A DNA stretch of 30,887 nucleotides, from NCBI RefSeq assembly GCF_003334405.1, contig NZ_QOWM01000028.1. The stretch is one strand, 5' to 3'. The position numbers and the translations under genes were made by a program. Position 1 is the first letter of the stretch; every line of letters starts with the position of its first letter. Below the pieces are notes generated by a model. It was not told where the DNA came from and did not search any database. It worked only from the letters and a program-made list of their open reading frames with translations. Shown piece after piece: positions 1,989-7,360 of this stretch. The stretch comes from Escherichia coli. Its GTDB lineage: Bacteria; Pseudomonadota; Gammaproteobacteria; Enterobacterales; Enterobacteriaceae.

Positions 1989-3278
1989 ATGAAAGTATTA
2001 GTGATTGGTAACGGCGGGCGCGAGCACGCGCTGGCCTGGAAAGCGGCCCAGTCGCCGCTGGTTGAGACTGTTTTTGTTGCTCCGGGTAATGCAGGCACTG
2101 CACTGGAACCCGCGCTGCAAAACGTTGCTATTGGCGTGACCGATATCCCGGCGCTGTTGGATTTCGCACAAAACGAAAAGATTGATCTGACCATCGTCGG
2201 CCCGGAAGCGCCGCTGGTGAAAGGCGTGGTCGATACCTTCCGCGCCGCCGGGCTGAAAATCTTCGGCCCAACCGCAGGTGCGGCCCAACTGGAAGGCTCA
2301 AAAGCGTTTACCAAAGATTTCCTGGCCCGCCATAAGATCCCTACGGCGGAATACCAGAACTTCACCGAGGTAGAACCTGCGCTGGCGTATCTGCGTGAGA
2401 AAGGCGCGCCAATCGTCATTAAAGCGGACGGTCTGGCTGCCGGGAAAGGCGTTATCGTGGCGATGACGCTGGAAGAAGCGGAAGCGGCTGTTCACGATAT
2501 GCTGGCGGGCAACGCTTTTGGCAACGCGGGTCATCGCATCGTTATCGAAGAGTTCCTCGATGGCGAAGAAGCGAGCTTTATCGTGATGGTGGACGGCGAG
2601 CATGTGCTGCCGATGGCTACCAGCCAGGATCACAAACGCGTAGGCGATAAAGATACCGGACCAAACACCGGCGGGATGGGCGCTTACTCCCCCGCGCCGG
2701 TAGTAACCGATGACGTTCATCAGCGCACCATGAAACGTATTATCTGGCCAACCGTGAAAGGCATGGCGGCGGAAGGCAACACCTACACCGGTTTTCTCTA
2801 CGCGGGCCTGATGATCGACAAACAGGGCAATCCGAAGGTTATTGAATTTAACTGCCGCTTTGGCGATCCGGAAACCCAGCCGATTATGCTGCGCATGAAG
2901 TCCGATCTGGTTGAGCTCTGCCTGGCGGCCTGTGAAAGCAAACTGGACGAGAAAACGTCCGAGTGGGATGAACGCGCTTCTCTCGGCGTGGTGATGGCTG
3001 CGGGTGGATATCCGGGTGATTACCGCACCGGTGACGTGATCCACGGCCTGCCGCTGGAAGAAGTGGCAGGCGGCAAAGTGTTCCACGCGGGCACAAAACT
3101 GGCGGATGACGAGCAGGTAGTGACCAACGGCGGGCGCGTACTGTGCGTCACCGCGCTGGGTCATACCGTGGCAGAAGCGCAGAAACGCGCCTATGCCTTA
3201 ATGACCGATATCCACTGGGACGACTGCTTCTGCCGGAAAGATATCGGCTGGCGCGCTATCGAACGCGAGCAGAACTAA
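1989..3278 (+). CDS. purD: Phosphoribosylamine-glycine ligase (GAR synthetase)
   Basis: 429-aa ORF starting MKVLVIGNGGREHALAWKAAQSPL, an ATP-grasp protein. Length equals E. coli PurD. Operonic with purH. Confidence 0.97.
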   Translation: MKVLVIGNGGREHALAWKAAQSPLVETVFVAPGNAGTALEPALQNVAIGVTDIPALLDFAQNEKIDLTIVGPEAPLVKGVVDTFRAAGLKIFGPTAGAAQLEGSKAFTKDFLARHKIPTAEYQNFTEVEPALAYLREKGAPIVIKADGLAAGKGVIVAMTLEEAEAAVHDMLAGNAFGNAGHRIVIEEFLDGEEASFIVMVDGEHVLPMATSQDHKRVGDKDTGPNTGGMGAYSPAPVVTDDVHQRTMKRIIWPTVKGMAAEGNTYTGFLYAGLMIDKQGNPKVIEFNCRFGDPETQPIMLRMKSDLVELCLAACESKLDEKTSEWDERASLGVVMAAGGYPGDYRTGDVIHGLPLEEVAGGKVFHAGTKLADDEQVVTNGGRVLCVTALGHTVAEAQKRAYALMTDIHWDDCFCRKDIGWRAIEREQN

Positions 3279-4600
3279 CGCGACAGTTTTGCCAATAGCG
3301 TTTTGCGCGTGATCCCTAACTGACGGGCGGCTTCGGTTTTGTTGCCGCCCGTTTTCTCCAGCGCCGCCAGAATCACCTCTTTTTCCACTTCCACCAACGG
3401 CTGAATATCCTGACTTTGTCCCAGCGGGATCGGCGTACTGGCAATCGCCAGCGGCAGCTCGCGTTCGGAAATATATTCCCCGGTCAGCAGCACCACTGCC
3501 CGTTCCACCGCGTTTTCCAGCTCACGAATATTTCCCGGCCAGTCGTAATGAATCAACAGATCCATCGCCTGGGGCGTAAAACCTTTTACCGCCTTGCGAT
3601 TACGCTCGGCAAAGCGCTGCAGAAAATGGCCAGCCAGCAGAGGGATATCTTCCCGCCGTTGCCGCAGCGATGGTACTTCAATCGCCACCACATTCAGGCG
3701 ATAGTAGAGATCCTGGCGAAAACGCCCGGCATTCACCTCTGCGGCAAGATCGCGATGGGTCGCCGCAATCAGCCGGACATCAACCGAGATAATCTGGTTG
3801 CTACCGACACGCTGAACTTCGCGCTCCTGAATCGCACGCAGCAGACGCACCTGCATCATCGGCGAGATATCGCCAATTTCATCGAGAAACAGCGTGCCGC
3901 CGTCCGCCTCAACAAAGCGCCCTTCCCGGCGTTTATCGGCTCCAGTAAACGCCCCTTTTTCGTGACCGAACAATTCAGATTCCAGCAAGGATTCGTTGAG
4001 TGCCGCACAGTTGAGCGTTACCAGCGGTTTTTCGCTACGTGCGCTACTGGCGTGAATCGCCCTGGCGACCAGCTCTTTACCGGTGCCGGAATCGCCGTGG
4101 ATCAGTACCGTGGCTTCCGATGGCGCGACGAGGGCGATTTCACTGAGCAGGTGTTGCATCGCCGGGCTTTTACCGACCATACCGAACTGGCTGGCAGTCA
4201 CCGCAGGTGTTTCAGCATCAATACTGTGCGTATGCGCGAGCGCTTTTTCCAGCGTCGCCTGTAGGTTATCGAAATCCAGCGGCTTGATGAGATAATCCAG
4301 CGCCCCAGTTTTCAGTGCCTCTACCGCCGTCTCGACGCTGGAGTACGCAGTCATAATCAGCACCGGAATTGCCGGGTTTAACGCTTTGATCTCTTTCAGC
4401 GTGGCGATGCCGTCCATCTCCGCCATTCGCACATCGCAAAGCACAAGATCAAAAACCTGTTCCCGCACCTGCTCCAACGCCTGTCGCCCGCTGTTCGCCA
4501 GCGCGACGTTATAGCCCCAGCCGCGCAGTAAAGCCTGCAAAATAGTGCAGTGGCTAATGTCATCATCCACCACCAGAATATCGATATTATCGTGCGTCAT
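3275..4600 (-). CDS. zraR: Sigma54-dependent two-component response regulator (NtrC family)
   Basis: 441-aa ORF with a receiver domain ([13 protein letters not shown]...), an AAA+ sigma54-activator core ([14 protein letters not shown]) and a C-terminal HTH. ATGA overlap with upstream zraS. Confidence 0.95.
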
Positions 4601-5994
4601 CCTTGTGGGTCCTTACGCGTAATATTGACCGGAAGCCAGAGGGTGAACGTTGAGCCTTTTCCCTCCTGGCTTGCGACCTGAATTGTACCACCGTGTTGTT
4701 CAACAATATTATGCACGACCGCCAGCCCCAATCCGGTGCCTTCGGCTTTAGTGGTGAAGTACGGAGTGAAGATGGCATCAAGCTGATCTGCCGCAATTCC
4801 CTTACCGCTGTCGGTAACGCTGATTTTCACGCCCGCGCCGCTTTCGCTGGCCGTCACGCTAATCACGCCATGCTGACCAATCGCCTGAATAGCATTGAGA
4901 TAGAGATTCAACAGGACCTGAGTCAGCCTGTCCGGGTCGGCCTGAATTTCCGGTAATGTGTCGTTGGCGGTAAAGCGTAACTGGATCTCCCGGCTGTTTG
5001 CATCCTGACTTACCAGCTGTAATGAGTGGTTAATCAGCGTGTTGAGATCCACCGCCTGCAAAGCCAGATGCGTTGGCTTAACCAGTTCCAGCAACTCGCT
5101 TACCACGCGGTTTAAACGGTCGGCCTCTTTCGCCATCACCTGCGCCAGTTGATGCGCTTCTCCCCCTGCAGGCGCGCGCTCGGCAAAGTATTTCGCCAGT
5201 CCTTTAATCGAGGAAAGTGGGTTACGGATTTCGTGGGCAACGCCTGCCGCAAGATGCCCCAGCGCCACCAGCTTCTCTTTGCGCTTCATTTCATCTTGTA
5301 GAAGCTGGCGCGAGCGCAGATAGCGGCGATACCAGAAGAATGACAATACGCTTGCCAGCAAGACCGTCGCCAGGGCGAAGAGGATAATCAGGGTATTGCG
5401 CTTTTCCCCACTCTGGGTTGCAACCAGATCACTGGCATCAACGGCGATAAAAATAGCCTGTTGTGCATCTACTTGTGGCACAGCTTTGCCGTTACAGCGC
5501 GGCATATTGTGCATTCCATGCCGCCAGGGCGCTGACATTGGCTGGAACAAACGATAGACCTCAAGTGCAGGCGTAGTTTCCGTTTTCCCAAGCAGCCGCC
5601 AGCGGGAGTTTTCCTCTGGCTTTAATTTCTGCATTTCATCCGGCGAATAGAGCGCACGCCCGACCTTATCGGGGTCGCTATGAAGAATAATGATGCCCTG
5701 CGCATCGGTGACTGCGAACCACAACACTCCCGGCTGTCCCGCCATCTCTTCCAGAAGCGCCTGTTGCTGTACATGGTGCATTCGCATCCCCATCCCTACG
5801 CGGCTTCCCGACTCCAGAGCGCGGATAAGCACATTACCTTTTTCCAGTAATGCCTGGCGGTCTGCCTCGCTTGCCCGCCCATAATCACGAATCACAGTTA
5901 CCGCAAACAATCCCACCAGCCCAACAATGACCACGGGGAGGATCGCGCTTAACCATTTAGCTAAGGAGTCTTTAGAACGTTGCATAAAACGCAT
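4597..5994 (-). CDS. zraS: Sensor histidine kinase of the zinc/envelope-stress two-component system
   Basis: 465-aa ORF with an N-terminal transmembrane segment, periplasmic domain, second TM, an H-box (HEIRNPL) and an HATPase_c region (GTGLGLAVV). The 3' end overlaps the zraR start by 4 nt. Confidence 0.95.
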   Translation of the reverse strand: MRFMQRSKDSLAKWLSAILPVVIVGLVGLFAVTVIRDYGRASEADRQALLEKGNVLIRALESGSRVGMGMRMHHVQQQALLEEMAGQPGVLWFAVTDAQGIIILHSDPDKVGRALYSPDEMQKLKPEENSRWRLLGKTETTPALEVYRLFQPMSAPWRHGMHNMPRCNGKAVPQVDAQQAIFIAVDASDLVATQSGEKRNTLIILFALATVLLASVLSFFWYRRYLRSRQLLQDEMKRKEKLVALGHLAAGVAHEIRNPLSSIKGLAKYFAERAPAGGEAHQLAQVMAKEADRLNRVVSELLELVKPTHLALQAVDLNTLINHSLQLVSQDANSREIQLRFTANDTLPEIQADPDRLTQVLLNLYLNAIQAIGQHGVISVTASESGAGVKISVTDSGKGIAADQLDAIFTPYFTTKAEGTGLGLAVVHNIVEQHGGTIQVASQEGKGSTFTLWLPVNITRKDPQG

Positions 5995-6024
5995 CTTCTT
6001 CTTTGCCTGCTCATCCCTTTCTGA

Positions 6025-6043
6025 CAGCAGAAATCATGCCATC
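6025..6043 (-). promoter_or_regulatory. Candidate sigma54 (-24/-12) promoter for zraSR
   Basis: Minus strand reads TGGCATG-ATTT-CTGCT, with GG and GC 12 nt apart as in the consensus TGGCACG-N4-TTGCW. It lies about 30 bp upstream of the zraS ATG. Confidence 0.5.
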
Positions 6044-6092
6044 TTTTATCAGCGCTTACCCTGCGCTGTAACACAAAGGCTTAAGTTTCAAT

Positions 6093-6138
6093 GAGTAAAA
6101 ATGACTCGCTACCCGCAGCAGGCGAGTCATTTTTACTC
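6093..6138. promoter_or_regulatory. Perfect 17-bp inverted repeat separated by 12 bp; probable ZraR enhancer (UAS) shared by the divergent zraP and zraSR promoters
   Basis: GAGTAAAAATGACTCGC (6093..6109) and GCGAGTCATTTTTACTC (6122..6138) are exact reverse complements. They sit between two divergent sigma54-type promoters, as expected for an NtrC-family activator site. Confidence 0.65.
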
Positions 6139-6180
6139 GTTTATCATGCCAGATTACCCGTCATATCAGCGTTTCATCGT

Positions 6181-6197
6181 TGGCACGGAAGATGCAA
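6181..6197 (+). promoter_or_regulatory. Sigma54 (-24/-12) promoter for zraP
   Basis: TGGCACG-GAAG-ATGCA matches TGGCACG-N4-TTGCW with correct GG/GC spacing. It lies about 35 bp upstream of the zraP ATG, with a GGAGG RBS at 6220..6224. Confidence 0.7.
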
Positions 6198-6231
6198 TAC
6201 CCGAAGTAAGACAACCACTGGAGGATTAACC

Positions 6232-6657
6232 ATGAAACGGAACACGAAAATTGCCCTGGTAATGATGGCGCTTTCAGCAATGGCGATGGGATCGACATCT
6301 GCATTTGCTCACGGCGGACACGGTATGTGGCAGCAAAATGCCGCGCCTTTGACCAGCGAACAACAGACAGCGTGGCAGAAAATCCATAATGACTTTTACG
6401 CTCAAAGCAGCGCACTGCAACAGCAACTGGTGACGAAGCGTTATGAATACAATGCCCTGTTAGCCGCGAACCCACCGGATAGCAGCAAAATTAACGCGGT
6501 CGCCAAAGAGATGGAGAATTTGCGTCAGTCGTTAGATGAGTTACGGGTGAAACGAGATATCGCGATGGCTGAAGCGGGTATTCCGCGCGGAGCCGGAATG
6601 GGCATGGGCTACGGCGGCTGCGGTGGTGGCGGTCATATGGGTATGGGCCACTGGTAA
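6232..6657 (+). CDS. zraP: Periplasmic zinc-binding chaperone / signalling-pathway modulator
   Basis: 141-aa product MKRNTKIALVMMALSAMAMGSTSAFA... with a signal peptide and Gly/Met/His-rich termini. Start chosen at the ATG behind a GGAGG RBS and downstream of the sigma54 promoter; the longer ORF from 6091 would begin inside the ZraR inverted repeat. Confidence 0.9.
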   Translation: MKRNTKIALVMMALSAMAMGSTSAFAHGGHGMWQQNAAPLTSEQQTAWQKIHNDFYAQSSALQQQLVTKRYEYNALLAANPPDSSKINAVAKEMENLRQSLDELRVKRDIAMAEAGIPRGAGMGMGYGGCGGGGHMGMGHW

Positions 6658-6658
6658 A

Positions 6659-7360
6659 TCAGAACGTTTTCTCGTTGGGTTGCCAGCGACAGAAATCAGA
6701 GTTTGCCACTAACAGTAATTGCGAACCTTCGGGCGCTTCCAGCCATGCCACGCTGACATCAACAGAAGAGCGGCTCTGGCGGCGCTCGATATGCGCTATC
6801 GCCTGCGAATCTAAATCAGGTTTAATGGTTTGCCCTTCGCAGGTGGTCACGGTCTGTTCCATCGCATGCCAGCGCCCCTGGCGCAGCACGACTCTCCCCT
6901 GACGTAAGGCATCGCTAATCTGGCGGATCTGATCAGCACGATAACGGTATAAATCGATTTGGTCGTTAGAAAGCTGCTGCTTTTCCCCATCGGATTCACG
7001 TTGCATAAAGCTCAGATCACCGCGATCGTCAAAACGCGCGCGAATATTCACCGGCGGTTTGCTGTAAACATTGATATTGATGAGCGTGAGGTTATCGCCC
7101 TGCCAGCGATACTCTCGCGTCGTGGTATCGCCACTGCGCCACGGGCTAAACACGGCAAGCAGATGCACATTATCGCCGCTGTCTTTTCGCCAGATGCGTA
7201 CCGCGCCCTGGTCTTCAGCAAATCCACTGGCGGTAAAGGGAGGAAGTGAAGAGTTATGACTACAGGCAGTGAGAAGCAGAGCGCCAGCCAGCATCAATGA
7301 TCGACGCCAGAAAGACAAAAGGGGTGAAACCACCCCTTCGTTAAAACTGTTCACTGCCAC
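6659..7360 (-). CDS. yjaH: Uncharacterised putative lipoprotein (DUF1481 family)
   Basis: 233-aa ORF with a GTG start 6 nt after the hupA stop. N-terminal RR...LMLAGALLLTAC looks like a signal peptide with a lipobox (LTAC). Exact start is uncertain; the E. coli annotation is about 231 aa. Confidence 0.8.
   Translation of the reverse strand: MAVNSFNEGVVSPLLSFWRRSLMLAGALLLTACSHNSSLPPFTASGFAEDQGAVRIWRKDSGDNVHLLAVFSPWRSGDTTTREYRWQGDNLTLININVYSKPPVNIRARFDDRGDLSFMQRESDGEKQQLSNDQIDLYRYRADQIRQISDALRQGRVVLRQGRWHAMEQTVTTCEGQTIKPDLDSQAIAHIERRQSRSSVDVSVAWLEAPEGSQLLLVANSDFCRWQPNEKTF

Follow-up and report, generated by a model that had tools for sequence, protein, structure and literature searches.

The zraP-zraSR locus

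The window analyzed here, a whole stretch of 30,887 nucleotides, is a segment of the Escherichia coli chromosome in reversed orientation relative to K-12, and 901 bp of it were 100% identical to the K-12-derived strain J53. Its genes run in the order purHD (+), zraR and zraS (-) and zraP (+), followed by yjaH, hupA, yjaG, nfi and hemE. According to the RefSeq annotation, positions 5995-6231 are exactly the intergenic region between zraS (ATG at 5994) and zraP (ATG at 6232). The three genes around this region encode ZraR, ZraS and ZraP orthologues in the zraP <-> zraSR arrangement, which places them in the ZraPSR system, and the RefSeq annotation was identical on this point (Table 1). zraS is the first gene of the autoregulated zraSR operon, and zraP, the main target gene, encodes a periplasmic zinc-binding chaperone that is also a feedback repressor.

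We compared the ZraR translation with profile and structure collections. The protein matched the NCBIfam ZraR model over its full length (positions 1-441), its residues 141-441 matched PDB 1OJL, the ZraR structure (E = 2.7e-177), and its residues 5-439 matched full-length NtrC-family structures. The sigma-54 contact motif GAFTGA was present in the translation. From these profile and structure matches, ZraR has the receiver, AAA+ (GAFTGA) and helix-turn-helix domains of a sigma-54 activator.

Table 1 Features of the zraS/zraP intergenic region and its flanking genes (window coordinates).
Feature	Position	Strand	Sequence and details
zraR	3275-4600	-	NCBIfam NF007689 ZraR equivalog, 994.8 bits (cutoff 760)
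zraS	4597-5994	-	Sensor histidine kinase; NCBIfam NF007688 ZraS equivalog, 841.6 bits (cutoff 479); RefSeq agrees
PzraSR sigma-54 promoter	6041-6026	-	TGGCATGATTTCTGCT; GG 6040-6039 (-24), GC 6028-6027 (-12); predicted transcription start ~6015
Left (zraSR-proximal) ZraR box	6092-6108	+	TGAGTAAAAATGACTCG; centre 6100; about -85 from predicted zraSR start, -107 from predicted zraP start
Perfect 17-bp inverted repeat	6093-6138		Left arm GAGTAAAAATGACTCGC 6093-6109; spacer tacccgcagcag, 12 bp; right arm GCGAGTCATTTTTACTC 6122-6138
Right (zraP-proximal) ZraR box	6123-6139	-	CGAGTCATTTTTACTCG on + strand; centre 6131; about -76 from predicted zraP start, -116 from predicted zraSR start
PzraP sigma-54 promoter	6181-6196	+	TGGCACGGAAGATGCA; GG 6182-6183 (-24), GC 6194-6195 (-12); predicted transcription start ~6207
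zraP ribosome-binding site and start ATG 6232	6219-6234	+	GGAGG 6221-6225; AGGAG 6220-6224; within conserved block AGGAGAA 6219-6225
zraP	6232-6657	+	NCBIfam NF008584 ZraP equivalog, 274.4 bits (cutoff 200)
Conserved block, zraSR promoter	6025-6041		At least 80% conserved in 37 non-Escherichia sequences
Conserved block, left box core	6095-6105		GTAAAAATGAC; as above
Conserved block, right box core	6126-6140		GTCATTTTTACTCGC; as above
Conserved block, zraP promoter	6181-6197		As above
Conserved block, ribosome-binding site	6219-6225		AGGAGAA; as above
Conserved block, zraP start	6232-6240		ATGAAACGG; as above

A 188-aa open reading frame runs from an ATG at 6091 and starts inside the left ZraR box, and the earlier note had argued against it in favor of the ATG at 6232. 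The data upheld this choice. The 6091 ATG lies upstream of the zraP transcription start predicted from the -12 element at ~6207; the alignment over 6091-6232 was unconserved, with indels that were not multiples of three; and the ribosome-binding site and the ATG at 6232 were conserved across genera, with the RefSeq CDS starting at the same base. The resulting 141-aa protein, which is also the length given by RefSeq, matched the NCBIfam ZraP model over profile positions 1-145 of 145. The true start of zraP is ATG 6232. ZraP entries of 174-186 aa with an extended N-terminus occur in public collections, and in some RefSeq E. coli genomes a 'hypothetical protein' is annotated on top of the enhancer; such calls within non-coding regulatory DNA are in both cases probably artefacts of gene calling.

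At the other end of the gene, the zraP stop codon ends at 6657 and the yjaH stop codon occupies 6659-6661 on the minus strand, leaving a single base between these convergent genes. A scan of 5900-6750 detected no intrinsic terminator, and zraP transcripts therefore presumably continue antisense into yjaH.

Several features were also recorded elsewhere in the window. Upstream of purH (ATG 389) there is a PurR-operator-like sequence, gcgcaaacgttttcgt, at 266-281, followed at 318-355 by a near-perfect palindrome of 38 bp whose 19-nt arms adjoin directly; in the purH leader RNA it would fold into a strong hairpin (-35.6 kcal/mol for 295-395, z = -4.9). Three Rfam matches scored above the gathering score: a TPP riboswitch upstream of thiC at 11640-11740 (+), the sroH sRNA at 17433-17593 (+), and 'P26' in the rplL-rpoB spacer at 26929-26990 (-).

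Divergent sigma-54 promoters and two mirrored ZraR boxes

The earlier note had read two oppositely oriented -24/-12 elements in the intergenic region, and pattern matches, published sigma-54 motifs and conservation all agreed with it at both coordinates. The pattern TGGCAY-N6-TGCW occurred three times in the 30.9-kb window against an expectation of 0.47; two of these matches were PzraP and PzraSR and the third lay inside rpoB. Both promoters have the -24 GG/-12 GC spacing of TGGCAC-N5-TTGCW, and each was conserved in at least 40 of the 42 related loci described below. Sigma-54 ChIP-seq in E. coli yielded the motifs TTGGCACGGAAGATGCA for zraP (OS38) and ATGGCATGATTTCTGCT for zraS (OS39), with listed distances to the gene of 25 and 21, respectively (Bonocora 2015, PMC4591121). 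Both motifs are letter-for-letter equal to those of PzraP and PzraSR in the window, and the listed distances put the transcription starts near window positions 6207 and 6015. Genomic SELEX with the sigma-54 (RpoN) holoenzyme gave a peak at 4199860 in the zraS/zraP spacer (PMC8743547), which converts to about window position 6083. Sigma-54 occupancy is thus documented by published data on the identical sequence (PMC4591121, PMC8743547). Near-identical motifs, together with sigma-54-dependent expression of zraP and hydHG, have been described in Salmonella (PMC3844500), and a review lists divergent sigma-54 promoters of zraSR and zraP under ZraR control (PMC4987338). A scan of 5900-6750 for sigma-70-type promoters returned none. 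Leonhartsberger et al. 2001 reportedly found the rpoN dependence in E. coli.

Of the three pattern matches, the one inside rpoB, TGGCACCGGGCGTGCT, is at 23536-23551 (-) on the coding strand. The main text of the Bonocora 2015 ChIP-seq paper makes no mention of rpoB, and the match is compatible with chance at the expected number per window; we rejected it. The sequence ATCATGCCA, which is the zraSR -24 element (6033-6041) in reverse complement, recurs exactly at 6143-6151, just past the right box. This copy reads TGGCATGAT on the minus strand, has no GC at the -12 position and occurs in Escherichia only. Direct repeats of TATCAGCG(C/T)TT lie near this copy, at 6047 and 6164.

Between the two promoters, a perfect 17-bp inverted repeat with a 12-bp spacer was found exactly where the earlier note had placed it. 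Its arms extend to 20 nt at 95% complementarity (6090-6109 and 6122-6141), and this 6090-6141 repeat was the top-listed inverted repeat within 80 bp across the 30.9-kb window. By an analytic estimate, an inverted repeat perfect over 17 bp and with a loop of at most 50 bp would be expected 9e-5 times in the window by chance. The degenerate box GRGTAAAAATGACYC, allowing at most 2 mismatches, matched at the two boxes only, against 0.12 matches expected in the window. A chance origin of the element was excluded because of these two expectations.

We then took the element apart into its two boxes. Position counts gave the ZraR box family consensus CGRGTAAAAATGACYCG, that is, C-G-R-G-T-A-A-A-A-A-T-G-A-C-Y-C-G, in which each 17-bp box holds an internal dyad, CGRGT.A...T.ACYCG, around an invariant, asymmetric A5 core. 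The right box is the same 17-mer as the left box in the opposite orientation, and together they make up 6093-6138, which is two-fold symmetric about an axis at 6115/6116. The orientation is always mirrored: in 43/43 sequences the TGAC ends point inward and the A5 tracts outward to the promoters. The centre-to-centre distance of 31 bp corresponds to about three helical turns, which places both boxes on the same face of the DNA. The geometry is that of an NtrC-type enhancer, with phased dyad sites centred at about -76 and -107 relative to zraP and at about -85 and -116 relative to zraSR. These results indicate that the unit is two 17-bp boxes of the form CGRGTAAAAATGACYCG in mirrored orientation, 31-33 bp apart from centre to centre. 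The simplest view of the 46 bp is a pair of dimer-type sites on one helix face, the usual assembly platform for a bEBP hexamer. Two 17-bp boxes thus describe the 'exact 46-bp symmetric site' of the earlier note better, and the exactness of its 17-bp arms is lineage-specific and not itself selected.

The paper with the original DNase I footprint (Leonhartsberger et al. 2001, J Mol Biol 307:93) reportedly describes 'two inverted repeats separated by a 14 bp spacer'. The 14-bp gap left by two 17-mer boxes fits this spacer. A full-text literature search returned no paper for the box sequence and general statements only for a quoted ZraR footprint; in a review on Salmonella, the ZraR enhancer sequence is given as 'NK' (not known) (PMC4987338).

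Binding of ZraR to this DNA and its effect on both genes have been measured in published experiments. In ZraR genomic SELEX, the zraS/zraP spacer was the single strong target, accounting for 81/86 clones (PMC8249747). The strongest ZraR ChIP-exo peak, peak_9 (signal-to-noise 73), was reported at U00096.3 4201786-4201818 (PMC7657598). With the zraP ATG 4201688 set to window 6232 and the zraS ATG 4201926 to window 5994, this peak converts to 6102-6134, inside the repeat and partly over each box, with the enhancer axis at 6115.5; its 33-bp resolution is coarser than base contacts or the stoichiometry per box. In a zraR knockout under ZnCl2, the log2 fold changes were -12.7 for zraP and -3.2 for zraS (PMC7657598). 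HydG supplied with a phosphodonor also binds the zraP-hydHG intergenic region (PMC5391612). The activator binding of an NtrC-type enhancer is thus documented by ChIP-exo and SELEX on the identical sequence, and with the collapse of zraP and zraS expression in the knockout the data supported the earlier note's view of a ZraR enhancer common to both promoters.

A weaker ZraR ChIP-exo peak, peak_8 (signal-to-noise 34; U00096.3 4201673-4201698), converts to window 6222-6247. It falls on the ribosome-binding site and start codon of zraP, at about +15 to +40 relative to the predicted start, a place with no ZraR box. This peak may be a cross-link through a looped ZraR-RNA polymerase complex, or an artefact.

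Conservation and geometry across Enterobacteriaceae

We aligned the sequences upstream of zraP from 42 loci encoding ZraP relatives in Escherichia, Citrobacter, Salmonella, Klebsiella, Kosakonia, Kluyvera, Phytobacter, Trabulsiella and Pluralibacter, which together with the window made 43 sequences. In the 37 non-Escherichia sequences, conservation of at least 80% was confined to blocks at both promoters, both box cores, and the ribosome-binding site and start codon of zraP (Table 1), and the rest of the spacer between these islands had freely diverged. Judged from the alignment, this pattern is a textbook phylogenetic footprint of a pair of promoters, a pair of activator boxes and one translation start.

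The boxes themselves were highly constrained. The 11-bp core of the left box, GTAAAAATGAC, was identical in 40/43 genomes and its flanking G and C were invariant, and the core of the right box, GTCATTTTTAC, was identical in 42/43. The spacing of the box centres, measured in 42 genomes, was 31 bp in 25, 32 bp in 15 and 33 bp in 2, so that the gap between the 17-mers was 14-16 bp; the spacer sequence was not conserved. Among the 39 genomes with matching 11-bp cores, the perfect arms measured between 11 and 21 bp, with only 11 bp in many genera; 4 genomes had a core mismatch. Within the box, co-variation between positions -1 and +11 was mixed (GC 13, AT 12, AC 9, GT 7), with no strict coupling.

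The distances between boxes and promoters were also kept. From the PzraSR -24 GG to the left box centre we measured 58.5-60.5 bp in every genome measured, and from the right box centre to the PzraP -24 GG 61.5-63.5 bp in 36 other Enterobacteriaceae, compared with 50.5-51.5 bp in 6/6 Escherichia sequences (the window and 5 loci). The shorter zraP-side distance of Escherichia reflects the loss of 11 bp, one helical turn, within 6139-6180. This deletion keeps the phasing and breaks the near mirror-symmetric layout of the other genera.

A search for IHF-like sites, WATCAANNNNTTR with at most 1 mismatch, between the boxes and the promoters returned 4 scattered matches in the 43 sequences, none of them in the window, and such a site is not conserved. 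Partial conservation was seen for two blocks at 6056-6077, (T)AACCCTG and ACACAAAC; they lie between the zraSR promoter and the left box, at roughly -40 to -62 relative to the predicted zraSR start. These blocks gave no match to the IHF consensus, and the equivalent stretch on the zraP side was not conserved.

Alternative readings and the bidirectional ZraR enhancer

The same 46 bp could be read as one long palindromic operator, in which each 17-bp arm is the half-site for one subunit or half a tetramer. The perfectly complementary arms of this strain speak for such a reading, as does the true two-fold axis given by the mirrored, asymmetric A5 core in 43/43 sequences. We consider it unlikely, however, since each arm has an internal dyad of its own over 17 bp, like an NtrC dimer site, and the arm distance varies from 31 to 33 bp with a free spacer sequence. 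The DNA-binding domains of the NtrC family point the same way: one Fis-type dimer would not be expected to span helix-turn-helix half-sites 31 bp apart. It is extremely unlikely that the repeat acts as a nucleic-acid structure, either as a DNA cruciform or as an RNA hairpin or terminator that insulates the divergent genes, even though a single strand folds to a 21-bp stem (-18.8 kcal/mol, z = -8.3). Arm co-variation was the decisive test, and the arms matched at 313/387 variable positions against 312.2 +/- 4.0 when partner genomes were permuted (43 genomes). Since neither arm follows changes in the other, the exact 17-bp match was not selected as a hairpin but simply results from two sites that both fit the consensus. 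The shrinkage of the perfect arms to 11 bp in many genera also argues against a structure. The repeat further lies upstream of both predicted starts and is thus transcribed from neither promoter, and it has no T-run; the terminator scan was negative and an Rfam family search of the region returned no match.

A third possibility is that the repeat is the site of another regulator, for example of the Cpx or Bae envelope-stress type drawn by the letters GTAAA, which resemble a CpxR half-site, or else the remnant of the terminal inverted repeats of a mobile element. Expression of zraP was altered in a baeR knockout as well (PMC7657598). Such an origin is nevertheless very unlikely: ZraR was itself found on this DNA by ChIP-exo and genomic SELEX, across nine genera the position of the element and its geometry with respect to both sigma-54 promoters are the same, and in E. 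coli a median of one site per genome was counted, with the element found in 5420/5426 genomes. Almost certainly, the region is a bidirectional control region, with sigma-54 promoters, for the envelope-stress and zinc system ZraPSR.

The following course of events is proposed, modeled in part on NtrC. Sigma-54 RNA polymerase would wait in closed complexes on the back-to-back promoters PzraP (6181-6196, +) and PzraSR (6041-6026, -), with the two 17-bp boxes midway between them, each probably taking one ZraR dimer. One symmetric dimer per box is what we infer rather than observe, because the A5-tract core of the box is itself not symmetric. Upon activation by periplasmic Zn2+ or Pb2+, ZraS would phosphorylate ZraR, and the box-bound dimers would nucleate an active AAA+ hexamer. 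This hexamer may loop to either promoter and open the closed complex by ATP hydrolysis. The output would be ZraP together with more ZraSR, a positive autoregulation on which ZraP would act back negatively through ZraS. The sites with their conservation and geometry, the occupancy by sigma-54 and by ZraR, and the ZraR dependence of expression are shown for this sequence, whereas the number of dimers on each box, the nucleation of the hexamer and the looping follow from the analogy with NtrC.

The arrangement resembles several known enhancers. The NtrC site is TGCACC-N5-GGTGCA, and the two strong NtrC sites of glnAp2 lie about three helical turns apart. The zra enhancer is built likewise: a pair of 17-bp dyad sites separated by about three helical turns precedes a sigma-54 promoter, the boxes being 31-33 bp from centre to centre and about 75-115 bp upstream of the start. 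ZraR, like NtrC, is a response-regulator bEBP with a Fis-type helix-turn-helix, and its score on the NtrC model, 458 bits, stayed under the cutoff of that model. The zra system differs from glnAp2 in its box, CGRGTAAAAATGACYCG, in the asymmetric, mirrored A5 core of that box, and in serving two divergent promoters.

The closest E. coli paralogue of ZraR is AtoC, the second-best NCBIfam match (500.8 bits), and AtoS was likewise second-best for ZraS. AtoC binds a pair of inverted repeats of about 20 bp upstream of the sigma-54 promoter of atoDAEB. The atoDAEB site differs from the zra element in sequence, in signal (acetoacetate) and in its unidirectional promoter. In norR-norVW, as in zraP-zraSR, the bEBP gene adjoins its target and the enhancer lies in the divergent intergenic spacer, and NorR and ZraR have been described as single-target regulators with the same gene organization (PMC8249747). 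NorR has three sites, and norVW alone is sigma-54 dependent (PMC2831303); the NorR consensus is GT-N7-AC (PMC4987338). At zra, in contrast, the boxes number two, and both divergent promoters appear to depend on sigma-54.

The element and its function are already known. The published ZraR (HydG) region, zraP-hydHG (Leonhartsberger et al. 2001; RegulonDB), is the same locus in the same organism with the same sequence, and nothing in it is substantially different; its divergent sigma-54 promoters and ZraR dependence match the published accounts (PMC4987338, PMC4591121, PMC8249747, PMC7657598). Only the parse differs, in that the 17-bp arms and 12-bp spacer of the earlier note become two 17-bp boxes with a 14-bp spacer in the same bases. 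Our additions are small and amount to no discovery: a comparative definition of the box, the mirrored orientation of the A-tracts, and the one-turn deletion in Escherichia. Their value lies in annotation quality, with the zraP start confirmed and a clean comparative definition of the ZraR box. The zraP promoter is used in zinc and lead biosensors (PMC5391612), and the minimal conserved elements and their spacing are of practical use for such designs.

The outward A5 tracts and the kept box-promoter distances also allow a more speculative reading, which we regard as possible but doubtful: together they could give the DNA an intrinsic bend of two-fold symmetry, through which one ZraR hexamer could reach either promoter without IHF. 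If this were true, the geometry of the enhancer, and not only its affinity for ZraR, would be under selection, and the 11-bp deletion in Escherichia would have retuned the ratio of zraP to zraSR output.
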